Below are positions 14-57,004 of a stretch of 64,000 nucleotides of DNA, one piece after another. Source of the stretch: Escherichia phage vB_EcoM-ZQ1; sequence record MW650886.1, one strand, 5' to 3'. How positions within the stretch are numbered: position 1 is the first letter of the stretch; each line of letters starts with the position of its first letter. Under the pieces are notes generated by a model, which worked only from the letters and a program-made list of their open reading frames with translations, did not search any database and was not told the origin of the DNA. The position numbers and the translations under genes were made by a program.

Positions 14-1909
14 TTAATCAGAGAATACTAATCCGATTCGCTCCAGAATAAGGTAGTCAGAGGTGGTGGACGATACAACCTTTATAGCCACTGTAGTAAC
101 TAAATGTGGTGGGTTCGATAAATCTGTAAAAAACCACTCAACATCGCCGCCGCCTACTTTTGTGACAGTAGTATCATACACCCTACCAGATGCGATAGTT
201 GGGTTGAAAGTGAGGGACAGGGTGGCGCTGTTACTTGAACCGTTGTTGTCGGTGAAGGCTGCTATAATCGCCTCCAGACGTACTGGTCGCCCAAAGTTTA
301 TGGTGAATTGCTCCCCTGTCTTAATTCGGATAACTCCTGCTGGGTCATTCCATGTAGCAGTTGATGCAGGGTTTAGCCAGAACACATCCCCTGCGACAAT
401 AGGCTTTGTCTGGTATTTATAGCAGTTAGCGGGCAGGGCGTTAGCCTTTCGGAATAGTGTACGTATCAACTTACAGTCTTTTATTTTACTCTTGCGGATG
501 GCAAGACTTTGTTTCACGAGATTATATATCTGGTCATCGTTTTCCAGAAAGTGCCCATTTTTATCAGCATAGAAAGCCCACATGCCAATCTTAGAAAAGT
601 TTTTACAGATGAAGTTATTAACCGCTGTAATCTGTGCGGATTTTAAAGTTGGGGCCTCGTTCTCATACCAATACGCTGTTAGTAACGGGATGATACGTCC
701 TGCCCTCATCCCCTCCTCCTCCATAGCCGACCACATAGAGGCAGCATATCGACGGATACCAACTGCATCTATGAAATGCGCGTACTGGGATGTAAATACA
801 AAATCAATATCCATATGGAGCGGTAGAGAATCCCAGTTAACTTCTGCGTTACTAGCGGCGTACAGCGGTAGGTTACTAAGTGTTTTCACTTTAGCAATAA
901 TCTCCCCCTGGCGAGTAAGAGGGTATGTAGACAAATTCGGCTCGTCGAATAGGTATAGCCCTACTACAGCGTCATGGTCAAATAAAGAAGACAGCTTAGC
1001 GAAATCTGCATCCAGGTCAGATGAATATGCACCATTTGGCACTGCCTGAAGTATGACGTCGAAACCATACAACTCAGCTAAGTCCAGAAACGCACGGTAT
1101 GTATCAACACCTGCAGTCCAGGTGTAGAACATGAATGTCCCTATCCCTAAGTTACTGGCTTTTTCAAACAGAGTAGGGTCCAAGTCCAACTTAGTCCAAA
1201 CTTCTGAAAAAGCAACAATCCCATCAGAGTTTTTCTGTCGTTTAGGTTCGGAAATAGTGAATCCTTTGCCTGTAGCATCATAAAAAGTGTGTGCATTACC
1301 ACTTCCAGGAGACCCTGTGGTGCCAGTGGCACGATAACTAACCGTTCCATATTTGAACCGCAGGAGGACGCTATTTGTTTTTATCTGCGAGACTTTAGCT
1401 GTGGCAATATTTATAGCTTCGTTGACTGGTTCTCCACCCAATTTTGAACGCAAATCGGGGTCAATTTGAAGCTTCCAGTCACCATTACCCACCGGGTTAG
1501 TCTCTGACGTAATAGTTACAGGTAGAGTTCCTAAGTAGGTGTAACCTATGCCATTATGAAACAGTAACTCATTTCGAGTATTCACCACCAAACCAGTAGC
1601 AAACGAATCAGACAGGCTTACGAACTCTCTACGTGTAGCAGCCAGTTCACCCAAATCAACTGTACCTGCTGAATGTACCAGGATTGCATGTTCGTTCAGA
1701 CTTATCGCAGTCGTTCCTGAAACAATACCTGAAGGAAGAGAATAAGCCCGTTGGGTAGACTCATCATAAATTACTTTAAATCCACTGAGGTCAATACCGA
1801 CAGTGAAATAAACGACTTCGTCTTCTTTGACACCGAAATTTCGAGCGATAGATTGTTTGTTAACTTCTATGGAAGTGGAGCCGCGTGGTTGATTGAATTG
1901 AGAAATCAT
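14..1909 (-). CDS. Tailspike / tail fibre protein with C-terminal putative glycosidase (depolymerase) domain
   Basis: 631-aa ORF; N-terminal ~95 aa module (VKEDEVVYFTVGIDLSGFKVIYDESTQRAY...) is near-identical to an internal module of the adjacent 1050-aa ORF; C-terminal half has TIM-barrel glycoside-hydrolase-like motif (LYLFDEPN); late-promoter-like motif and SD upstream. Confidence 0.55.
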   Translation of the reverse strand: MISQFNQPRGSTSIEVNKQSIARNFGVKEDEVVYFTVGIDLSGFKVIYDESTQRAYSLPSGIVSGTTAISLNEHAILVHSAGTVDLGELAATRREFVSLSDSFATGLVVNTRNELLFHNGIGYTYLGTLPVTITSETNPVGNGDWKLQIDPDLRSKLGGEPVNEAINIATAKVSQIKTNSVLLRFKYGTVSYRATGTTGSPGSGNAHTFYDATGKGFTISEPKRQKNSDGIVAFSEVWTKLDLDPTLFEKASNLGIGTFMFYTWTAGVDTYRAFLDLAELYGFDVILQAVPNGAYSSDLDADFAKLSSLFDHDAVVGLYLFDEPNLSTYPLTRQGEIIAKVKTLSNLPLYAASNAEVNWDSLPLHMDIDFVFTSQYAHFIDAVGIRRYAASMWSAMEEEGMRAGRIIPLLTAYWYENEAPTLKSAQITAVNNFICKNFSKIGMWAFYADKNGHFLENDDQIYNLVKQSLAIRKSKIKDCKLIRTLFRKANALPANCYKYQTKPIVAGDVFWLNPASTATWNDPAGVIRIKTGEQFTINFGRPVRLEAIIAAFTDNNGSSNSATLSLTFNPTIASGRVYDTTVTKVGGGDVEWFFTDLSNPPHLVTTVAIKVVSSTTSDYLILERIGLVFSD

Positions 1910-1938
1910 GATAATACCCCATAAAGGATGACCAATAT

Positions 1939-1949
1939 GGGGTATTTAG
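1939..1949 (-). promoter_or_regulatory. Late-promoter-like motif CTAAATACCCC (minus strand) about 30 nt upstream of tailspike start
   Basis: Minus-strand sequence CTAAATACCCCATATTGGTCATCCTTTATGGGGTATTATCATG; resembles T4-type late promoter TATAAATA; same motif recurs upstream of other late genes. Confidence 0.4.
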
Positions 1950-1987
1950 GCTGAACTAATAAATTTATGAACAAAGGTATAACAAGA

Positions 1988-2012
1988 ACCCCGCCGAAGC
2001 GGGGGTTTTTAT
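1988..2012. terminator. GC-rich hairpin (ACCCCGC-CGAA-GCGGGGGT) with flanking T/A runs, intrinsic terminator between the two tailspike genes
   Basis: Perfect stem-loop followed by TTTTTAT on the plus strand; on the minus strand it immediately follows the stop codon of ORF 2009..5161. Confidence 0.5.
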
Positions 2013-5000: not shown

Positions 5001-5161
5001 CCCTCGGGTAAAGTCAGGACAGCATCTGGTCCATGCTCAATCGTACCCGTGTTGAGGAGACCAGCCAAAGTAGACTGCTCTTCAGCCGCCAGACCGAGAG
5101 GGAAAACAGGCTGTGTTGGTTTATTAGCCATTTCAAATACCCCTAAATGTGTTCGTTTCAT
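2009..5161 (-). CDS. Large tailspike protein (about 1040-1050 aa); start probably the second ATG at 5131
   Basis: Long ORF with Gly/Ser/Thr-rich beta-rich composition; shares the ~95-aa module with ORF 14..1909 (residues around 350); first ATG lies inside an inverted repeat and the promoter-like motif, second ATG has SD AGGGG. Confidence 0.55.
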   Translation of the reverse strand: MKRTHLGVFEMANKPTQPVFPLGLAAEEQSTLAGLLNTGTIEHGPDAVLTLPEGNASTGLPSSVRYNADSDEFEGFYENGGWLPLGGGGIRWEVLPHASTATLTEGRGYLINNTTGASTVVLPSPTRIGDSVTICDAYGKFATYPLTVSPSGNNLYGSTEDMAITTDNVSATFTWSGPEQGWVITSGVGLGQGRVYSREIFTKILASETSSVALNTPPTIVDVYADGKRLAESKYSLDGNVITFSPSLPANTELQVIEYTPIQLGNGGGSSSSTITWVYNGGSAIGGETEITLDVVVDDVPAIDINGSRQYKNLGFTFDPLTSKITLAQELEPEDEVVVIINGTPNIYNQIDYTLREVARVANVKDTEVVYFSVGAALSGYKVIYDKETQRAYPLPADIVPGTTAVSLSSSAILVHSAGSVDLGELAVSREEYVTLSGTFDSGATLNVKNELLTHTTGKYRWEGEFPKTVPSGSTPEASGGTGLGAWVSVGDASLRSDLLSDNGAQITGSSNGKTVQENIDTIYNEISILDSSVDVTSKESMSSLKTAVSTLTSLKDTDTTVQYDGFGNTVFWNGRNLLCFRRSPAHIDQATGKHSACIAEILKDGSASVIWEYVPPAGIAAKEPSISVSNPGNQLIIAFTLHDVAADTYKKTIVGYVDLNNSGAFTSKSDIVTTDDYYQWGNVLTTPDGKLIISRYSITGTEVQLVTSSDVLLNASTTWSVTKSFQISDFPGRSLINETCLGYYRGQMIAVIRANTGSSAGGIAICKTNDLTGANGWSILVSNYVYAGPRIEAYTDFDDPLVITGTTSRPVTPMYRSNVSLTITYDLSTFSTSQIVYQGDYFSCYASAKKVSDGVYELISFDEVPDSGSGENVVTSIHRQNFFISQENRTQRVTNFKANWLQSIIKDTPCFGSLSGVNSTSSSSNMYFSVNTELSGITRLFLMIGPVESGMTVTPLLKRADGTTFASFYNVSIPASTRPQIIELVPVVPTLAFSIFERLNLNFSTPLPLGCVGGVAGARLPSLDRTPIGLYNVVGNTTSPYVAIALGKL

Positions 5162-5164
5162 CTA

Positions 5165-5175
5165 GGGGTATTTAG
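5165..5175 (-). promoter_or_regulatory. Late-promoter-like motif CTAAATACCCC (minus strand) at the start of the large tailspike gene
   Basis: Minus strand reads AAATACCCCTAGATGAAACGAACACATTTAGGGGTATTTGAAATG; motif is half of an 11-bp inverted repeat. Confidence 0.4.
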
Positions 5176-5183
5176 TTTTCACT

Positions 5184-6395
5184 TTAGAAAGAAGCGACTA
5201 GATTGTAGTCAACGGAGCACGCAGTCGTCGTGTTCGCATTTGTTATCGTCAAACGAAGTTTTGAAGACACTACAGAACCCGCGAATGTCACCGTACCGGA
5301 AGTGGACTTCTGTACCAACAGCTCAGACTTGATAGTCCCGTCACGGGTGATCGTCACGCGGTACGTATCCACGACGTTGCCTGTACCCCATTGTGCACTG
5401 ATCAACACCTGGCAAAGGTTCACCAAATCGAAGTCGGGTAACGCAGAGTTCCCAGAAGCAGAGACAGTGATACCGCTTGGGTTGGTCTTCCCGATCTTCA
5501 CACGGGCAGCAATGTCGGCGTCCAGGCTTGTCATTTTGGCGTTGTAGGTCGATGTGTTGACCTTTCCAGACAACGTGGTATTGATCGTGCCGATATCACT
5601 CTGAATGCCGCTGATGGAACCGTCCAACGCCGCCATCTTCGTGTTATACGTACTGACGTTCACTTTGTTGTTCGTCAGATCCAGTATACTGGTGTCCAGG
5701 CTAGACATCTTGGAGTTGTAAGTCGACGTGTTGACCTTCGCAGCCAGAGTGGTGTTGACAGTGTTGAACTGAGACTGGATATCCAACATATCGGCATCAT
5801 AATCAACAACCTTCAGATAAGCGTTGAAACGCGTATCATTGAAGATAGAAGCCACAAACGCAGATGTGTCGTACTTGACAGTGTCGGTTCCACTCACCAG
5901 TAACATGGTAGTTGGCACACCAGTACCAGAGTAATTGGCCAGATTTGTGCCATCGAAAGTGAGTTTGTTGTAGCCGCCAGGTAACAACTCGATTTTCAGA
6001 CCAGAGTTAACCCCGGCAGTGTCTTCACTCACGCCGTGCTTGCGCAGCATAGACAGATTGACGCCATCAGTGGAATCAACTGGCTCATCTGCGATGGTAA
6101 GTTTCTTCCCCGTAGGGATACTGACACCAGCATTGGCTCGGATTTCTGCGGCAAAAGTCTTCCGCCCGTTGATAGTTTGTTCACCACCGTCGGTACGGAT
6201 CACTTTGTTTTCCAGTGTGTCGTAGATATTATCCACAGAACGCTTCAGCTCATACGTCAAATGAGCTGAAGGAGGAAACAACGAATCATCAACAGCGAAA
6301 TCGTTGACAACATCAGTCTTGCTTATTTTATCGTCAACAGAAGAAAGGATTGCATCAATCTGCTGACCTGTGTATCGACTCAGAAAATCGGCCAT
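5184..6395 (-). CDS. Tail fibre protein with internal sequence repeats
   Basis: 403-aa ORF; repeated units VNTSTYNSKM / VNVSTYNTKM / VNTSTYNAKM typical of fibre shafts; strong SD AAGGAG upstream; located between baseplate-like and tailspike genes. Confidence 0.5.
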   Translation of the reverse strand: MADFLSRYTGQQIDAILSSVDDKISKTDVVNDFAVDDSLFPPSAHLTYELKRSVDNIYDTLENKVIRTDGGEQTINGRKTFAAEIRANAGVSIPTGKKLTIADEPVDSTDGVNLSMLRKHGVSEDTAGVNSGLKIELLPGGYNKLTFDGTNLANYSGTGVPTTMLLVSGTDTVKYDTSAFVASIFNDTRFNAYLKVVDYDADMLDIQSQFNTVNTTLAAKVNTSTYNSKMSSLDTSILDLTNNKVNVSTYNTKMAALDGSISGIQSDIGTINTTLSGKVNTSTYNAKMTSLDADIAARVKIGKTNPSGITVSASGNSALPDFDLVNLCQVLISAQWGTGNVVDTYRVTITRDGTIKSELLVQKSTSGTVTFAGSVVSSKLRLTITNANTTTACSVDYNLVASF

Positions 6396-7252: not shown

Positions 7253-9014
7253 AACGCACCTCCGGCTCCACAGTTACAGCACCGATGCGGAGCACCTGAT
7301 TCTGTGTGGCCTGAATGTTCTGGTCAAGACCGTCTGGAGACACAATTATTGTCACACCCTCAGTGTTGTAGTTAGATACTATGATACGCTGGAGTTCAAC
7401 AACGCCAGTCGCATAATCAACCGTTCCAACAGCTTGTACCAGATATTCCTTGGTTGTGTCTGTTGTACTCACCTTGTACATATTCAGGACACCACTGACG
7501 TCGCGTATGTAGTAAGTGAATTCGACCTCGGCCGGAAGCGGCTTAAACCCACTGATACGCACAGAACCAGACGCAATCGAGCGCCCATAATCGAATGTGA
7601 AGCTGTCCAGTACCCCATAGTCTGGCTTGAAATGGCGCTTATACTTCACAGAAGTGATGTTTGACACTATCGATCTGTCCATGTCGGTGATGGCCGACTG
7701 TAACTGCTCTTTATCGAACAGTTCGTCGAATCCTTCTAGATTCCCCAAACCCCAGTTAACAACACCGTTCTTCACGACTGTCTTCAACTGCTCTTCGGTA
7801 TAGGACGTGGAAGTCGGATCCCAGAACACGCGGGTGGTGACATCAACATAAGTCAGTTCAGCGTCGACAATCTTGGGTGTGATCGTGCCCACATTGTACT
7901 TGTCTAACGTCGCCACGATATCTGCCTTCTCAGCGTCCGAGAGCGCCTCACCAACAGAAGGTATCACAGCAATGTAAACGTATCCGGAGTCAGGCGGAGA
8001 GAGCGTGTCGCCGCCATATGCTTTGGCGCGGGAGACGTTGGAGAACAGACGCTCGGTCAACACAGCATAATCGACTTCGGCTACCGCCGCACCCTCAGCC
8101 TGATAAGCCAGCGGAGCAAGGCGCTTGATGTCCTCAATGCTCTCTGGGTCCGCACCGCCGGAAGAACGTTCTGACACCAGCTCAACATCTACAAGGTTGA
8201 ATCCCCCGATGGAAGACGCGGAGGACAAGGCAGTGATGTCATTGCCGTCTGCACCAGCTGTCTCCAGATACTGGAGGTACACGACGTTCCCGTCTTCTAC
8301 TCGCTTACAGATATACCCATCACCGAATTCGAACGTGTACATCCCGTCCAACCCCAGCTCAACGAAGTAGAGTTGCGCATACTGGCTCAAATCGAACGGG
8401 CTGACATATCGTGAGAAGGTAGACCGCACGTCAGATGTCTCAGATTCCTGCACCTGCACCACCATATGGTCGATGTCCACGGAAGAAGATGGGATCACAT
8501 AGGTAGAGATCGCGCTGCCTTCCACATCATAGGACTTGTACAGCCAGTTACCCTGTATGAGTTTGATGTTCTCGAACTTGTAAGAGCCGTCTACAAGAGA
8601 GGCACTCACAGGTTGGTCAACCGTGAAGTTATAGGATTTGCCATCCTTCACCCCAATGAACATCGCGCGGCGATCCATTACAATCGTTTCTGGAGCCGTG
8701 CTGGCGTCATATGGAGTGACTGTGACGTTTGCGTACAGGTACGCTGCCTGGTAGTTGTGAGGGGTGTAAGACAAGAACCCAGCCGCAAGACCGACATTAG
8801 AACGCTGTTGAGCAGAGTGAAGATGGCTTTCGCCATTCAGCATGTTCTGCATGAACCCGATAGAGTTGGCATCCGAGGCCAAGATACGCACGATTGCACT
8901 GAGACCAGAACCTTCAAAGTCATAATCCTTGAAAGTTGGATCAGCTTTCATGCGCTTCTTGATAAGATACTCGAAAGCCCTGACATCGAGTGAAGGGACT
9001 GTTTGCGTGGCCAT
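7236..9014 (-). CDS. Baseplate wedge protein (gp6 / baseplate J-like), assignment by size and context
   Basis: About 590-aa ORF; track start is a TTG at 9065, more likely ATG at 9014 (MATQTVPSL...); CTAAATA motif upstream; first gene of the minus-strand structural operon. Confidence 0.4.
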   Translation of the reverse strand: MATQTVPSLDVRAFEYLIKKRMKADPTFKDYDFEGSGLSAIVRILASDANSIGFMQNMLNGESHLHSAQQRSNVGLAAGFLSYTPHNYQAAYLYANVTVTPYDASTAPETIVMDRRAMFIGVKDGKSYNFTVDQPVSASLVDGSYKFENIKLIQGNWLYKSYDVEGSAISTYVIPSSSVDIDHMVVQVQESETSDVRSTFSRYVSPFDLSQYAQLYFVELGLDGMYTFEFGDGYICKRVEDGNVVYLQYLETAGADGNDITALSSASSIGGFNLVDVELVSERSSGGADPESIEDIKRLAPLAYQAEGAAVAEVDYAVLTERLFSNVSRAKAYGGDTLSPPDSGYVYIAVIPSVGEALSDAEKADIVATLDKYNVGTITPKIVDAELTYVDVTTRVFWDPTSTSYTEEQLKTVVKNGVVNWGLGNLEGFDELFDKEQLQSAITDMDRSIVSNITSVKYKRHFKPDYGVLDSFTFDYGRSIASGSVRISGFKPLPAEVEFTYYIRDVSGVLNMYKVSTTDTTKEYLVQAVGTVDYATGVVELQRIIVSNYNTEGVTIIVSPDGLDQNIQATQNQVLRIGAVTVEPEVRYVQRS

Positions 9015-9054
9015 GATAATCTCCATCACCTGAGTTTGAATATGGTGTTGAAGA

Positions 9055-9061
9055 TATTTAG
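9055..9061 (-). promoter_or_regulatory. Late-promoter-like CTAAATA motif upstream of baseplate gene
   Basis: Minus strand reads GGCTAAATATCTTCAACACC about 40 nt upstream of ATG 9014. Confidence 0.35.
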
Positions 9062-10145: not shown

Positions 10146-11923
10146 CTCAAAGAGGAGAGGACTTTTCAAATTAGCTGGGCTGCAGTAAAGTATTAAGCGT
10201 GAGGCGAACAACGCATCGAGTTAGGCATCTAAAGCCGACCTCGCTAATCCCAGTCTCAGGGGCATGCGTGAATAGAGGCGTGATATCCACCTTGCATGGT
10301 GTCAGTGGACGCACTTGACCGTCGGAGAACGAAACTCCCTGTTGTAGCGTGATTAGCTCAGAATCAGAGAGCACCCTGTTGGCAAGTCGACACCAACATA
10401 TAAGGGGAGGTCGGGGGCGCTAATCTCCATCACGCCGGCAACATTATGAGTCTTCCACAGAGGGTTCATAATGTTGCGTCAAAGGGCAACAAGGTTCCTG
10501 TTGGTTGAATTAACTTGATTCATAGTTCCTACTGATCTTCCCGGATTCGAAGGAGCACCAACAGGCGAGGCCGGATGCGTAAGTTCCGGTAAATCGATGG
10601 TGATACCCTCGCCAACAAAAATAAAAGGTTTTATCAATAACGGGTTACAAAGTATAGTTAACCCACTGAAGCGAAAAGCTGTTTGGGCATTAGACAAACA
10701 CTTCGATGTGAACCCAGGACATGGCGTCTTGTGCTCAAACAGGTTTTCGTTTTCGTTGTGAGTGACTTTGCGGGTTTTTAGAAACTGACCAAGCAAATAA
10801 CTGCTAATGATTCCGAAGTTCTGATGGCGGCGTAACAGCCTATAAGTCAGTGAGGTCTTCCGATTCCTCATCACCAAATTCGGCGCACTAAAATAGACGG
10901 GAGGGTGTGATTAATAATCTCCCGTCGACAATGCCGTTATATCTGACTGTCCAAAGGGGATAAGCTCCTGAGTAAGCAGAGGTGGGTTGCCTAAGTCAGA
11001 TGGGATGTAAGGTCAGCGCTGGCCAAGCATTTGGGTTCGACTCCTAAAAACGGCTCCACATCTTTGAGGATATTCTCACGAGTATCTTGAAAGATGTGAG
11101 CGAAGTCTTGCCATCAGCCCTGATCCCTGGCAGGTGAAGGGCACACAAATCGAAGTGCCTTGACAATTTATCTTAAACCCAAAGGTTGATCTACAAATTG
11201 GACGGCCAATCCGGTGGACGATAACAGCATATTGGGCTATACTGTTGAGTCAGGGCACTTCGATTTGTGAACTTGAGAGAGCGTTGGGTGAAATAGACCA
11301 TGCCTTGCAGATTGCGATGCCTACACATTCCGGACACTGGTGGGCACCAAGAAGAACTCAGTAGCAGACGAGCCATCAGGGTTAGCTACCCGGCGCGGCG
11401 AGGACTGGGAGGCCGAACTAAGGGGAAACCCGAGACAGGCGTAGTATTCTCAAGTTCACAAAATGAAGAGCATTTAAAGAGTTCGATTCTCTTTCAGGCC
11501 ATTCGTGGTGTGATGTGAGTCATGAATGTTCTTCATCTTTGGGTGATTCTATGTTGCCGGGCTATCAACCCATGCTTGCTAGAGCAACCAGCCAGCCTCG
11601 TTTGGTCCGAGCGTTAGAGGACAAGTTGCTTCTACATGGAAGCTGCGAGTTGCGACATTGGTTGCAACTTTGATGGCTCTGGATTTTATAAACCATGTCT
11701 ATGGGTGACGCGGGATCTTTAGTACCAGAGCTATCAAAGTTGTGTCCAACCCGATCTTACAAGCCCGTATCCCGGTCTGGTTAAGACTTGTAAGTGGAAA
11801 GCCCTGGAAAAATAAACGCCTGTGGCGAGGCTATGGTGCAAGCCAAAGACCCACAGAAGCGCATGCCGTGAGGCAGCACAAACAGGCATGCATGAACTGA
11901 TCATGTACAAACGGGATAAAGGG

Positions 11924-11954: not shown

Positions 11955-12031
11955 GGTCCTGTAGCTCAGTCGGTTAGAGCAGTGAACTCATAATTCATTG
12001 GTAGTTGGTTCAAATCCAACCAGGATCACCA
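11955..12031 (+). tRNA. tRNA-Met (anticodon CAT; could also be Ile-lysidine type)
   Basis: Hand-folded cloverleaf: acceptor GGTCCTG/CAGGATC, D-stem GCTC/GAGC, anticodon loop CTCATAA, T-arm GTTGG-TTCAAAT-CCAAC, encoded CCA. Confidence 0.85.
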
Positions 12032-12283: not shown

Positions 12284-12372
12284 GGAAGGTTGCCCGAGAG
12301 GTTTAAGGGACTCGACTGCTAATCGAGTGGGGCTTTTAGCCCCCGAAGGTTCGAATCCTTCACCTTCCGCCA
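12284..12372 (+). tRNA. tRNA-Ser (anticodon GCT), type II with long variable arm
   Basis: Acceptor GGAAGGT/ACCTTCC, D-stem CCC/GGG, anticodon loop CTGCTAA, variable arm TGGGGCTTTTAGCCCCC, T-arm GAAGG-TTCGAAT-CCTTC, encoded CCA. Confidence 0.85.
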
Positions 12373-13468: not shown

Positions 13469-14662
13469 ATGAACAAGACCATCTTCGATATCCTTTCCCT
13501 CGACCGCAACCTGGTCCATTGGGAAGATTATCTCTACAAGCACACCCCGTGCGAACTTGTCGTCAACCACGAAACCAACCAGCAGGTCTGGTTCAAGCGT
13601 GAAGATTATTTTGCGCCGCTGTCCAATTATGCAAATGGCCAGCAGGGCATCAACGGCAGCAAACTCCGCCAGGCCATCTGGTTGATGGTTGAGCACCTCA
13701 AGGCCGGAGGCTCCCCTGACATCATCCATGGTACTGTCGTTGGTAGTCCGCAGTCCCCTATGGCGACGGCAGTCTCTCGGCACTTCGGCGGCAAGACAAC
13801 CACTGTACTCGGAGCGACCAAACCCACCACCTGTATGAACCATGAAATGGTGAAAATGAGCGCCTGGTTCGGTAGTGAGTTCAACTTCGTCGGCTCGGGT
13901 TACAACAGCACGATCCAGCCGCGCTGTAAGAAGTTGATCGAACAACAGAATCCAAAGGCGTATTATCTGGAGTATGGTATCACCCTCGACCATACAACCC
14001 ACTCCCCTGAGCGCATTGCTGGGTTCCATATGCTGGGTGGCGAGCAGGTTGCCAACATTCCTGATCACATTACTGACCTGATCATCCCAGCCGGATCGTG
14101 CAACTCTTGCACAAGCATCCTGACCGGGCTGGCAATGCATCCGAAGCCTAATCTGAAGCGTGTGTATCTGATTGGCATCGGTCCGAACCGCCTGGACTTC
14201 ATTGAGAGCCGTCTGCGCATCATCGGCAAACATGCCAATCTGCCGCACATTGTCGACTTCACCCGTCGTTATCACGACAACCCAGACTATGTACACGGCA
14301 AGAAGGAGCTTCAGCATGCCTCTAAGAGCGTTTCGCTGGCTGGCCTCCTAAGTGGTATCAGGCAGAAGGAAGAGCCAGAGGTCGTGCTTCCTCGCTTTGA
14401 GGTACACCATTGGGATCTTCATACCACTAATTGGGTTCGTTATAATGACCTGATGGAATATCAGTGGGGTGATATTGAGTTGCATCCTCGCTATGAAGGC
14501 AAGGTCATGACCTGGGTTCAGCAACACAAGCCCGAGTTGCTCAACGAGAACACTCTGTTCTGGATTGTGGGCAGCAAGCCGTACATTGAGCCAATGAAGG
14601 CTGCATGTCCTGAACTGGCTATCCCCGAAGCAGTACCTGTGAACGGATTCACCCCTTCCTGA
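13469..14662 (+). CDS. PLP-dependent enzyme, fold type II (ACC deaminase / D-cysteine desulfhydrase / tryptophan synthase beta-like)
   Basis: Motif GINGSKLRQAIWLM...GTVVGSPQSPMATAVSRHFGGKTTTV resembles the GGNKxRKL...QSNHxRxxAAxA signature of the family; start moved to the ATG with SD AGGAGA. Confidence 0.55.
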   Translation: MNKTIFDILSLDRNLVHWEDYLYKHTPCELVVNHETNQQVWFKREDYFAPLSNYANGQQGINGSKLRQAIWLMVEHLKAGGSPDIIHGTVVGSPQSPMATAVSRHFGGKTTTVLGATKPTTCMNHEMVKMSAWFGSEFNFVGSGYNSTIQPRCKKLIEQQNPKAYYLEYGITLDHTTHSPERIAGFHMLGGEQVANIPDHITDLIIPAGSCNSCTSILTGLAMHPKPNLKRVYLIGIGPNRLDFIESRLRIIGKHANLPHIVDFTRRYHDNPDYVHGKKELQHASKSVSLAGLLSGIRQKEEPEVVLPRFEVHHWDLHTTNWVRYNDLMEYQWGDIELHPRYEGKVMTWVQQHKPELLNENTLFWIVGSKPYIEPMKAACPELAIPEAVPVNGFTPS

Positions 14663-14768
14663 CCCTCCTGAATACCCCATACAATCCGTGTGGGGTATCT
14701 ATGAAAACCTTCCTCCAATATTTCCGGAGAGTCGTCCTGTACAAACCAGACCTCGCCAAGCGGGAAGC

Positions 14769-14779
14769 CTAAATACCCC
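14769..14779 (+). promoter_or_regulatory. Late-promoter-like motif CTAAATACCCC upstream of ORF 14809
   Basis: GCCTAAATACCCCCATATGG about 30 nt upstream of SD GAGGAA and ATG 14809. Confidence 0.4.
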
Positions 14780-15898: not shown

Positions 15899-16199
15899 AG
15901 ATGAATTTAGAATCTTTGAATGTCAAGCGGGAGCAAACTTCTTCAACCGCGTCAACCACCATAAAATCGTTGAATGCTTTGTGTAGGGCTTTCAGGAAGG
16001 AAGCCGGAACCAGCCCACACGCTGGGTTGTCAAACAAAGCCGAAGAGACGACAGAGTTGAAAGTTGAGTCTGGAGTACAAGACTGGGCAATCATAAGCGC
16101 TTCTGCGTTTCTCACTGCGTGGAACTTAAAGGTAGCAACAACGGTTTCTTTGTTATATTTAGCCAGTTGTGCTTCAAATTGTTCTTTTGTGATTGCCAT
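15891..16199 (-). CDS. Hypothetical protein (start placed at MAITKEQ with SD AAGGAAAT)
   Basis: Track ORF extends to 16286, but the internal ATG at 16199 has a good SD and the extension covers an AT-rich intergenic motif region. Confidence 0.4.
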   Translation of the reverse strand: MAITKEQFEAQLAKYNKETVVATFKFHAVRNAEALMIAQSCTPDSTFNSVVSSALFDNPACGLVPASFLKALHKAFNDFMVVDAVEEVCSRLTFKDSKFIFV

Positions 16200-17201: not shown

Positions 17202-18619
17202 ATGACCGTTTTCTATACGAACGTTGCCCGCAGGGGTAATGACCTGTTGATTCGAATTGCAGATGACATGGGTAATCGCCGTCTGTTGAAAAAGAAATTC
17301 GAACCTACTCTCTATTTACCCACGGCTGACTATTCAAATGTTGAAAAGGTCGGTCTTCTCAATGAACCCCTGGTAGCCAAGCAGTTCCCTTCCATGCGTG
17401 ACGCTGACAACTATCTTGAAGAGTACAAGGAAGTCCAGGGTGCTGCCATTTACGGGCAGACCGATTATGCATACCAGTTCATCGCCCATAGCTTTCCTGG
17501 AAAGATTGAGCCGGATTATTCCAACATCCATATTGCTAACCTCGATATCGAAGTGTTCTCCGCCGGGTGGAAAGATGGAAAGATGACCAAAGGTCCATTC
17601 CCTCACCCAACCATTGAGCAGCAGACGTTCAAAGGGAATGAGGCGCGCATTCGCCGCTTCCATCAGCAGGTACTGGCCAACCATGACTTCATCCGTGAGC
17701 ACTTTCCCAGTTCCTTTATCAGCAACAACGTCACTGATCAGTTCCCTATCATTGACAGCAACGGCAAGATCACCCAAGACATGAATGCGGCGTTCCCCAT
17801 TACCCTGATCCAGCTTCAGGATATGGCGACCAATAAGTTCATGGTCTGGGGTATGCCCTGTGCCAAAGACCGCAATAAGTTCGCATACGACACCGAAGAC
17901 AAAGAGATCGGCGGCCTTGAGGTTGTTTATCAGGAGTTCACCACAGAACAAGATCTGCTGCGCTCGTTCCTAGACTTCTGGTCGGAGCGTCAGTTTGATG
18001 GCTGGACTGGCTGGAACATTGAGACGTTTGATAGCCCTTATCTTGTTGAGCGCATGAATCAGGTTCTGGGTGAGGCTGAAACGTCGCGCCTCAGTCCTTG
18101 GGGTATCATTAAGAAGCGTATCATTCGCGATAAGAAGGGCGATATCACGACGTATCAGTTCGTGGGTTGCCCTATGCTCGATTATATGCAGATCTACAAG
18201 AAACACACGTACACCACCCGTGAACGCTACTCTCTTGACTGGATTGCGTATTGTGAGCTGGGTGAGAAGAAGATGGACTACAGTGAGAGCAAGTCGCTCT
18301 TTGATCTGTACTTCAACGACTACTGCAAACACACCCGATATGGTATCAAAGACGTTAAGCTGGTATGGCGACTTGAACAGAAGCTGCGCCTGCTCCAACT
18401 GATGTTCGTCCTGGCCTACCGCACCAAGTCCAACTATGAAGACGGTCTGGGCACTGTGGCTCCGTGGCTGGCCATGTGCTACTATCGCCTGTACGAGAAG
18501 GGGATAGTGCCTAAGATCCAGCGTGTATACGATGGTCCGACCGACTTTGAGGGTGCATACGTCATGGATGTGACACCAGGAATCTACTTCTGGGTCTTCT
18601 CGGAAGATTTGAACTCCCT
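17202..18619 (+). CDS. DNA polymerase, family B (T4 gp43-like), exon 1 (N-terminal exonuclease half)
   Basis: Exo I motif NLDIEV; ORF terminates 5 codons after the sequence DLNSL, which is the first half of polymerase motif A. Confidence 0.75.
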
Positions 18620-19802
18620 TAAGTTAGCAGCATAGGGGCTTTGGTTGGCGACAACCATCGAATAACTCTCTTAATTGCTGGGAAGTCTCTTTAGAGATAA
18701 TCAGCAGCCAAGGTCGGCCACGAAGACCTAAATACTCTGTAACCACGGTGAAGGAGTAAGGTCATGAAGGAAATCAAGAGTCTGTTCTATCGAAATGATT
18801 TGGTAATTGAAGAATCTAAGATAGAAGAATATTTGAAGTTCTGTAAGGAACACAGTTATGATGGTGATGGATACAGTGAACGCCATCATGTACTGCCTCA
18901 GGCACATTATCCTGAGTTCTCTAAAGAAGAATGGAACATCGTAAACCTGTTGTACAAAGATCATGTGGAGGCTCATCGCCTATTGCATGAAGCATTACCA
19001 GAAGATAAATCAGCGTTCTTCGCCTACTTCATGATGAAATCCCATAACGGGGAACTAAGTGAGGAATTGAGAAGAAAGAATGTTGAAATGTTGACGGGAG
19101 AAGGGAATCCTTCGAAGAGGGAAGATGTCAGAAGAAAGATATCCAAATCTAAGAAGGGTGTTAAAAGGGCAGATATGAAGGGTAAGGCTTATTTCGGCGC
19201 TGATAAAGAAACAGCTGAAAGAATTAAAGCCAATTCCAGTCTTGTTCACAAAGGCACTGTCCCCGTAAGACTCCTGGATGGTAGTGTTATCAAAGTTTCA
19301 ACGCAAGACCCGAGATATTTGAGTGGTGAGTTGAAATGTATAATAGGTGCAAAGAAAGGTCAGGTGGGACCAAACACCGACCCAAAAGCGAAGAAGAAAT
19401 TTAAAGATTCTTTAGAGAAAAGGAAGGAAATGTTTGCCAGAATGAGTGGGGAAGAAATAACCACTCATTGCTTGACACAACAGGATTTAGGTAAGAAGAC
19501 TGTAGAGTGGGGCAAGTTGGCAAGAAACTTCAAACGACTCTTTGGTTACGCTGGGTTAAACCCAGATGATTTCCTTGAAGTAGTGGGCGACAAGGTTCAA
19601 CGACTATCGAAAGCAAGACCGACGACTAAGCGTCTGATCTGAAGCGAGTAGAGTAGGGGCAAGCGCCTCGAAATGGAGAGAATCTCTAGACAGTTCTGGA
19701 GATTGTGATATAGTCTGGCCTGTATGGTGACATACAGCAGTGTTCGGTAAACTGAATGACGAACACGGGGGATGAAATAGCGAGCATCCCTGAACACAAG
19801 CG
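18620..19802 (+). mobile_element. Putative group I intron carrying an HNH homing endonuclease, inserted in the DNA polymerase gene
   Basis: Splicing 18619 to 19803 restores the frame and yields DLNSLYPHII (motif A); exon 1 ends in U, intervening sequence ends in G; internal ORF has an HNH motif. Confidence 0.6.
18764..19642 (+). CDS. HNH homing endonuclease (intron-encoded)
   Basis: HNH motif ERHHVLPQAHYPEF...NIVNLLYKDHVEAH; NUMOD-like repeats GEGNPSKREDVRRKISKSKKG; SD AAGGAG. Confidence 0.7.
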   Translation: MKEIKSLFYRNDLVIEESKIEEYLKFCKEHSYDGDGYSERHHVLPQAHYPEFSKEEWNIVNLLYKDHVEAHRLLHEALPEDKSAFFAYFMMKSHNGELSEELRRKNVEMLTGEGNPSKREDVRRKISKSKKGVKRADMKGKAYFGADKETAERIKANSSLVHKGTVPVRLLDGSVIKVSTQDPRYLSGELKCIIGAKKGQVGPNTDPKAKKKFKDSLEKRKEMFARMSGEEITTHCLTQQDLGKKTVEWGKLARNFKRLFGYAGLNPDDFLEVVGDKVQRLSKARPTTKRLI

Positions 19803-26267: not shown

Positions 26268-26301
26268 TATAAATATCCTCGCCTATAAAGCGAGGATATT
26301 A

Positions 26302-26472
26302 TCATGTTACAAGATCTGTTGGTTTATGCGCTTCCTGGCGCGGTTGTCGGCTTCATCGCTGGTGCTCTGGTCTTCCGTAAACACGCGCAAGATGGTGAAG
26401 TGATTGTTCAGAAGGGTAAGGACATCCTGGAACAAATCGAAGCCAAGCTGGAAGAGCTGAAGAAAAAGTAAT
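26302..26472 (+). CDS. Small single-TM protein (56 aa)
   Basis: MLQDLLVYALPGAVVGFIAGALVFRK... followed by a charged tail; preceded by a hairpin containing TATAAATA. Confidence 0.35.
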
Positions 26473-49179: not shown

Positions 49180-49186
49180 CTAAATA
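49180..49186 (+). promoter_or_regulatory. Late-promoter-like CTAAATA motif upstream of structural gene 49221
   Basis: TCCTAAATAGCTATAAC about 35 nt upstream of the ATG. Confidence 0.35.
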
Positions 49187-49220
49187 GCTATAACACTCTA
49201 TCTATTTAAGGGCTGAGACC

Positions 49221-56890: not shown

Positions 56891-57004
56891 GTGGTGTCTC
56901 CAGGGTTATATGTGCTGCTATTATAACCCTGGGGACTTCAATAGATTATTGGTGGGTGTGGGATCTTGCTTAGCCGATAATGACCGCAAATGTTTCTGTA
57001 TCCA

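Follow-up and report, generated by a model that had tools for sequence, protein, structure and literature searches.

In bacteriophage T4, the late promoter consists of an 8-bp box lying about one helical turn upstream of the transcription start, and A+T is favoured downstream of the box (PMC2988020). At several genes of T4 and its relatives, a late promoter is set in the 5'-strand region of a helix that sequesters the ribosome binding site (RBS), and late transcripts escape this helix. Genes e, soc and 49 are documented examples, as are I-TevI, I-TevII, I-TevIII, segB and mobE of phage Aeh1 (PMC3014915, PMC2988022). The hairpin of gene e, with its embedded late promoters, was reported by McPheeters et al. 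in 1986, as reviewed in PMC3014915, which also places the mapped late 5' ends downstream of the box.

Among the Ackermannviridae, phages CBA120, ViI and AG3 encode homologues of gp55, gp33 and gp45, and as of 2011 their late promoter had "not yet been identified" (PMC3184105). PMC7283392 lists CTAAATAcCcc among "two unique regulatory motifs" that these phages possess, and the genome of Dickeya phage LIMEstone1 is the source of late-promoter annotations (PMC3296691). In the literature searched, which included PMC3184105, PMC3296691 and PMC7283392, no mention was found of a partner arm or of pairing between the motif and an RBS; similarly, a search for start-site, transcript 5'-end or transcriptome data from the Ackermannviridae or Kuttervirus returned none. 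The published motif is treated as linear, and the partner arm is added here. The motif itself is already known and the proposed mechanism is of a known T4 kind; the new part is modest, namely the recognition of the 'cCcc' tail as an anti-Shine-Dalgarno (anti-SD) arm and of a device that is widespread in the Ackermannviridae, tailspike genes included. A motif so far quoted without explanation is given a mechanistic reading, as a gp55-type box joined to an anti-SD CCCC, which from a T4 viewpoint is an expected extension and no surprise. The original description of CTAAATAcCcc is reportedly that of Adriaenssens et al. in 2012 (Arch Virol 157:2035, 'Viunalikevirus').

The element at the start of a tailspike gene

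The locus lies within a window of 64,000 nucleotides (the whole stretch of Escherichia phage vB_EcoM-ZQ1, MW650886.1, that was analysed). The backbone of the window had ~97% identity with Agtrevirus-type Ackermannviridae (PC3/PH4, AV101) and ~89% with Dickeya Limestoneviruses, and its tailspike region matched Kuttervirus and Agtrevirus phages. The gene concerned (14..1909 on the minus strand, 631 aa, ATG at 1909) had been called a tailspike from the sequence-only reading, and the name was upheld by the match of its N-terminal 159 residues to CBA120 tailspike protein 3 (TSP3; residues 1-159, PDB 5W6F/6NW9, E ~4e-59); Pfam returned nothing for this protein or for the small ORFs. The co-directional gene upstream (ATG 5131, stop 2009, minus strand) has a Tail_spike_N domain and is ended by a canonical intrinsic terminator, CCCCGCTTCGGCGGGG followed by TTCTTGTT, at 1989..2004(-); the homologous feature in phage Mutine is annotated 'terminator'. 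Read along the minus strand, the stop codon of the upstream gene is followed by this terminator, by ~40 nt and then by gCCTAAATACCCCATATTGGTCATCCTTTATGGGGTATTATC-ATG, which is the ATG at 1909.

The minus strand at the focal site is gCCTAAATACCCCATATTGGTCATCCTTTATGGGGTATTATCATG. It contains the full published motif as an exact 11-mer match, CTAAATACCCC, at 1939-1949(-), within which the CTAAATA box occupies 1943..1949 and the core TAAATA 1943-1948. The box agrees with the T4 late consensus TATAAATA at six of eight positions, and its proposed likeness to the -10 element of a T4-type late promoter was supported from two sides. First, in the GenBank record of LIMEstone1, the homologous site ahead of ORF159 bears the label 'minus_10_signal, putative late promoter', as do 32 others, and of the 29 leaders examined from these 33 annotated late boxes, 28 share the TAAATA core, with a variable base preceding it. 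Second, homologues of gp55, gp33 and gp45 are encoded by relatives; none lies within the 64-kb window, and all are annotated in the close relative LIMEstone1. The focal box departs from the A+T preference of T4 late promoters in being followed by CCCC.

A late-promoter-like motif within an inverted repeat had been claimed here, with 13-nt arms around a 13-nt spacer. Motif and repeat were both found in place, but the geometry was corrected: the repeat is perfect over 11/11 bp (1936-1946 / 1913-1923), the outer two bases are unpaired and the spacer is 12 nt. The 5' arm, AATACCCCATA (1936..1946, read from 1946 to 1936), shares bases with the box and covers those that follow it as far as the predicted late start, and the bases from AATA of the box through CCCCATA are complementary to the 3' arm, TATGGGGTATT (1913..1923, read from 1923 to 1913). 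The 3' arm holds the SD-like GGGG of the tailspike gene (1917-1920, 7 nt before the ATG), a weak SD, with which the 3' half of CTAAATACCCC pairs. In the predicted RNA, the spacer UUGGUCAUCCUU (1924..1935) contributes a U.U internal loop, a GG/CC apical stem of 2 bp, additional to the 11-bp arms, and a tetraloop. The full leader folded at -20.5 kcal/mol (z = -4.87; 0/200 shuffles were equally good), with GGGG paired and the AUG unpaired. The suggestion that a partner arm with an SD-like GGGG could fold the leader and occlude the RBS was therefore sustained as regards occlusion; it was not supported as regards the promoter's own transcript, since the leader from the predicted late start folded at only -5.2 kcal/mol (z ~0). 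Searches with Rfam covariance models gave no match at 1900-1955, 5130-5180 or 14660-14710 (E <= 1).

The T4 e leader (NC_000866) is TAAATACCTTC-TATAAATACTTA-GGAGGTATT-ATG, which folded at -13.3 kcal/mol in full and at -2.8 when truncated at the predicted start. In sequence and predicted folding, the two layouts are alike, being TAAATACCTTC...GGAGGTATT-ATG in T4 e and TAAATACCCCATA...TATGGGGTATT-ATC-ATG at the focal site. In both, the box opens the 5' strand and is followed by a pyrimidine run that is complementary to the SD and pairs with it; GGTATT closes the 3' arm shortly ahead of the ATG, and the fold is abolished once the box and 6 nt are removed. They differ in that e is a lysis gene with two promoters, whereas the focal gene encodes a tailspike and has a single promoter with the box CTAAATA, not TATAAATA. 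Unlike T4 e, the focal site also has late structural genes upstream with a terminator between, and read-through transcripts would not obviously be early. A T4-like lysozyme homologue from IMG/VR showed TAAATACCCC...GGGGGTAT-T-ATG, its leader being TAAATACCCCTATATAAGGGGGTAT-T-ATG. The logic is also that of T4 I-TevI, I-TevII, I-TevIII, segB, soc and 49 and of Aeh1 mobE, where sequestration of the RBS is relieved by a late promoter lying beside or inside the hairpin.

The element is, with moderate probability, a late promoter of the T4 type that sits within the 5' strand of an mRNA hairpin sequestering the RBS. RNA polymerase carrying the phage's gp55-like late sigma factor would initiate ~6-8 nt downstream of the box, an offset taken from T4. 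Because a start ~6-8 nt past TAAATA would leave out the 5' arm (ATACCCC), the hairpin would form only on read-through transcripts, and to judge from the folding of the shortened leader, the transcript made from this promoter most likely lacks it. Late transcripts lacking the 5' arm would have an open RBS and be translated; transcripts entering from upstream would contain both arms, fold, and translate the tailspike cistron poorly. Tailspike translation would thereby be tied to the gene's own late promoter, providing temporal gating and/or insulation from polycistronic messages, and the 'cCcc' of CTAAATAcCcc would largely represent the anti-SD arm rather than a promoter determinant.

It is rather improbable that the hairpin instead belongs to the gene's own late mRNA leader, with transcription starting in front of the 5' arm or right at it, or with a promoter elsewhere, and serves in constitutive attenuation, in a response to temperature or a factor, or in RNase protection. 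The SD is buried in a strong fold whose loop and apical GG/CC pairs are kept across genera, as for a structure recognised by a protein or the ribosome, all of which would suit such a role. However, the 90-nt gap that follows the terminator holds a single promoter-like element, which the 5' arm overlaps, and the overlap of box and arm recurs at every gated site as well as in T4 e, where late 5' ends lie downstream of the box. Moreover, ungated late promoters with different SDs exist, as at 14769.

Copies elsewhere in the window

The window contained three exact copies of CTAAATACCCC and one copy with a single mismatch, against an expectation of 0.58. Perfect 11-bp inverted repeats with spacers of 3-30 nt numbered seven, where 0.37 were expected from a first-order Markov simulation, and three of the seven were late-promoter/RBS hairpins. 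CTAAATA was not over-represented by count in the window (7 vs 4.4 expected) and is informative by placement only: six of its seven copies lay on the correct strand ~30-45 nt ahead of a start codon (binomial p ~4e-8), while the seventh, at 16156(-), was inside a coding frame. When the interval was set at 12-75 nt upstream of starts, it held 6/7 CTAAATA (p ~4e-8) and 10/21 TAAATA (p ~4e-9). The question raised earlier, of whether the motif is equally frequent within coding sequence, was thus decided in favour of the motif by the six copies upstream of starts. According to synteny with LIMEstone1, the genes behind these boxes encode tailspikes, gp6-like and gp48-like proteins and virion proteins.

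The second copy (5134..5175 on the minus strand) combines CTAAATACCCC at 5165-5175 with a 16-bp hairpin at 5134-5174 that includes G.U pairs and covers the GGGG SD of a 1040-aa, tailspike-type gene (ATG 5131). This hairpin, CTAAATACCCCTAGATG-loop-CATTTAGGGGTATTT-GAA-ATG, folded at -21.0 kcal/mol (z -7.6). The mechanical ORF of this gene begins at an in-frame ATG within the hairpin loop, at 5161 and not 5131. The third copy (14668..14703 on the plus strand) has one mismatch, CTGAATACCCC, and an 11-bp hairpin with one U.G pair (arms 14672-14682 / 14688-14698) that covers the GGGG before ATG 14701; its sequence is AUACCCCAUAC/GUGUGGGGUAU-CU-AUG and it folded at -17.8 kcal/mol (z -4.6). The box of the third copy is degraded to CTGAATA and its hairpin is still intact. 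The ATG at 14701(+) opens a remnant ORF of just 22 aa (MKTFLQYFRRVVLYKPDLAKREA*); in LIMEstone1, the equivalent leader and C-terminal codons belong to ORF173, a virion protein of 152 aa and a paralogue of ORF174, and from this comparison the gene body behind 14701(+) seems to have been deleted in the window phage.

A further exact CTAAATACCCC (14769..14779 on the plus strand) stands upstream of a 152-aa structural-protein gene (ATG 14809) without a partner arm and with GAGG as the SD. Its leader does not fold (-6.0 kcal/mol, z +0.45), and it is an ungated late-promoter-like site. Similarly, the CTAAATA at 49180..49186(+), upstream of a gp48-like baseplate tube-cap gene (ATG 49221), has no RBS hairpin. 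At 49180-49214, TAAATA boxes at 49181(+) and 49208(-) face each other in the divergent gap that separates the gp48-like gene from a homing-endonuclease-like ORF; the palindrome that they make mimics a hairpin, and neither SD is involved.

The exact T4 consensus, TATAAATA, occurred at 26268-26275 in an element spanning 26268..26306 on the plus strand, together with a perfect 11-bp inverted repeat (26272-26282 / 26290-26300). Here AUAUCCUCGC/GCGAGGAUAU comes after the box and takes in the GAGGA SD belonging to the gene of a 55-aa membrane protein (ATG 26304), and the fold was -15.9 kcal/mol in full and -1.5 from the predicted start. The 55-aa protein (MLQDLLVYALPGAVVGFIAGALVF...; box and gene within 26268-26471 on the plus strand) has one predicted transmembrane helix, is a homologue of LIMEstone1 ORF191 and had no match in Pfam. 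The predicted gating of its gene resembles that of the endolysin in LIMEstone1, and the protein could be a holin-like lysis protein; in ViI-like phages, such a protein has been reported as unidentified (PMC3184105).

Two weaker versions were observed. At 18728..18766(+), CTAAATACTCT is paired with AGGAGTA (the SD) before an intron-type HNH endonuclease ORF (ATG 18764), and the promoter segment adds -7.0 kcal/mol to the fold. The ORF lies inside the DNA polymerase gene, and this site is the window's direct parallel to T4 I-TevI. The ORF (18764-19642 on the plus strand) is a homologue of I-LimII, the HNH endonuclease of the DNA-polymerase intron in LIMEstone1, and on either side of it, within 18610-19737(+), lies a group I intron match that stays below threshold (19 and 28 bits; gathering score 50). 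At 9012..9061(-), CTAAATATCTTCA is paired with TGATGGAGAT (SD GGAG) before a gp6-like baseplate wedge gene (ATG 9014), where gating was weak (-5.7 kcal/mol). The recurrences of the heptamer that had been listed earlier, at 9055(-), 14769(+) and 49180(+), were all confirmed; the copies at 5165-5175(-) and 14668-14678(+), each with its own partner arm, the site at 18728(+) and the TATAAATA at 26268(+) had been absent from that list. Across these sites, the sequence after the box varies and tracks the SD of the gene that it precedes.

Perfect inverted repeats of at least 11 bp that are unrelated to the motif were also present, at 10438-10477, 56900-56932 and 6243-6271. They comprise an intergenic stem of ~18 bp (GCAACAUUAUGA...) near tRNA genes, a 15-bp stem (CCAGGGUUAUA...) at 56.9 kb, and a repeat that falls within the coding part of the gene at 5184-6395(-). 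The tRNA genes, at 11955-12028(+) and 12284-12369(+) (Rfam, 70.9 and 56 bits), are both in the divergent stretch that separates the tail genes from those for replication.

Conservation across genera

Conservation of the focal-type element extended over Kutter-, Agtre-, Limestone- and Nezavisimistyvirus, and such variation as there was lay mostly in the loops. The focal element, loop included, was present in CBA120 (orf212/TSP3), Mutine, LIMEstone1 (ORF159), Erwinia phage Bue1 and a Klebsiella phage. Among sequences retrieved by protein homology, it was invariant and the upstream flank diverged up to the base before TAAATA; homology retrieval from IMG/VR yielded few, near-identical sequences, which are good for conservation and poor for covariation. 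The pattern scan of IMG/VR fixes CCCC/GGGG by construction, and therefore its use was limited to variation in the inner stem and the loop; outside the Ackermannviridae, many of the matches were ordinary terminators or chance. Within the focal family, the tetraloop alone varied between genera (UCAU / CGAU / UUAU / CAAAU / UAACG), and the apical loops of the 14668 family were AAUCC/AGUAA/AGCAA/GACCA. Each sequence of the 5174-type family folded on its own at -18.6 to -21. Strict covariation was thin, amounting to two pairs in one lineage and none in the focal family; the ORF129 family showed two compensatory pairs (C:G->U:A and A:U->G:C). Among 16 representative elements, the sense strand folded better than the antisense (Wilcoxon p 0.002) and G.U pairs were mostly on the sense strand, which together favour a structure in the mRNA over a palindrome in the DNA. 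Besides being strong and strand-specific, the fold recurs at several genes of the window and is conserved across genera.

A palindrome acting at the DNA level, as the operator of a dimeric regulator, as a cruciform or non-template hairpin aiding promoter opening, or as a recombination cassette for tailspike swapping, is very improbable. It would account for a 38-bp core that, loop included, is ~95% identical between the window and Dickeya, Erwinia and Salmonella phages where the flanks do not align, and that precedes unrelated tailspike N-termini (MISQF..., MSRN..., MTRN...). However, the arm spacing ranges from 4 to 13 nt and the loops differ between gene families, the stems contain G.U pairs and fold better in the sense orientation, and the 3' arm invariably coincides with a gene's SD region. 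A dimeric operator or a cruciform was rejected as the main explanation on grounds of variable spacing, G.U pairs and sense-strand bias; for the unusually invariant 38-bp tailspike cassette, a role at the DNA level may still hold. The tailspike homologue on an unrelated 70-kb contig (L141) is without the element and has an ordinary terminator and an AAGAGG RBS instead; the element therefore appears to belong to the phage expression system and not to the tailspike module.

Environmental viral contigs from IMG/VR (loci L052-L055, L089, L090, L116) had TATAAATACCCCTAGG-loop-CTAGGGGTATTTTTTATG before an ORF starting MAEP.... These place a promoter within a hairpin outside the Ackermannviridae and the T-even phages, and the arrangement is thus probably widespread among phages that use gp55. 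In a Klebsiella phage record (PP889490.1), the start of the tail fiber CDS is the ATG within the 3' arm (ATGGGGTATTTTCAAATGGCC).

LIMEstone1 leaders and possible roles

The contribution of the box to leader folding was evaluated for 28 LIMEstone1 leaders with annotated late boxes, each folded with and without the box (TAAATA) plus 6 nt, and a gain of at least 6 kcal/mol was taken as the cut-off. The leader's own segment produced such a gain in 10 of 28 cases, against 9.7% of chimeras, in which the leader carried the segment of another promoter (binomial p 1.8e-4; MWU p 0.03). The ten leaders were those of ORF160, the endolysin, the tailspike ORF159, ORF173, ORF191, the RuvC-like gene, I-LimII, UvsW, gp48 and gp6; the value for gp48 is due to a palindrome of two divergent promoters with no SD pairing, and so this is not a gated site. 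ORF129 fell just under the cut-off (-5.5 kcal/mol, 9 SD pairs) and is gated likewise. The endolysin leader is TAAATACCTTCGC...GCGGAGGTATTT. In this analysis, too, the bases behind the box went with the SD, in the pairs CCCC/GGGG, CCTTC/GGAGG, TCCTC/GAGGA and CTCTT/AGGAG. When gating was defined by a gain of at least 5 kcal/mol with involvement of the RBS region, gated sites made up 9/19 of those with a co-directional upstream gene and 1/9 of divergent sites; this bias fits the read-through rationale but is not significant (Fisher p 0.07). These results suggest that the tailspike, the endolysin, the small membrane protein and the intron endonuclease are all subject to translational gating of the T4 kind. 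Use of the device appears far wider in the Ackermannviridae than in T4, involving ~1/3 of the annotated late promoters of LIMEstone1, tailspike and virion genes among them.

That the hairpin is mainly a terminator or 3'-end stabiliser for upstream transcripts, with AAATA as the A-tract partner of a U-rich tail and the whole acting as a terminator-promoter insulator, is unlikely. The leader hairpins of the LIMEstone1 endolysin and ORF129 (tails UAUUUUCUU) are annotated 'putative factor-independent terminators' once minus-strand coordinates are corrected, and a combined role that includes termination is thus plausible for some copies. Several families have GGGGTATTTT at their end, some sister hairpins whose tail is TATTTTCTT are called terminators in LIMEstone1, and at the 5174(-) copy the upstream gene is followed by no other terminator. 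The focal hairpin, however, was not flagged by a terminator scan, its tail UAUUAUCA (TATTATCA) being U at 4/8 positions, and a second terminator would be redundant because the hairpin stands just 40 nt after a canonical one. Furthermore, the 3' arm always abuts the start codon and holds the SD, and the arm tracks the SD, which termination does not need.

Under the promoter-in-hairpin explanation, the upstream transcripts would be read-through of the 1989-2004 terminator at the focal site and the unterminated message of the preceding structural genes at the 5174 copy. Since a strong terminator lies 40 nt upstream of the focal box, few long transcripts may exist there, and since the genes upstream are themselves late structural genes, the classical early-versus-late rationale is not obviously applicable. 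The role at the focal site may be insulation or stoichiometry rather than timing. A more speculative and rather doubtful extension is that the device is a genome-wide rule in the Ackermannviridae, applied at ~1/3 of late promoters even inside late structural operons, as a 'one promoter, one cistron' insulator and not a T4-style early/late switch; it would also terminate or stabilise the upstream message and fix the stoichiometry of the four tailspikes, and the 38-bp cassette might be a portable junction for tailspike exchange between genera. In practice, the 38-bp cassette should stay intact when tailspikes are swapped for host range in Kuttervirus or Agtrevirus phages.

For annotation, it is relevant that gene starts of these phages are sometimes wrongly placed at an ATG within the loop or the 3' arm, and that some promoter-in-hairpin elements carry terminator annotations. 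In the LIMEstone1 record (NC_019925.1), all 20 of 20 minus-strand 'terminator' features stood too far downstream, each by precisely the length of the feature itself; as annotated they folded at ~0 to -5 kcal/mol, whereas the shifted coordinates gave -9 to -19 and had T-tracts. The plus-strand terminator features of this record were correct, and several of its '-10' features were a few bases off the TAAATA core.
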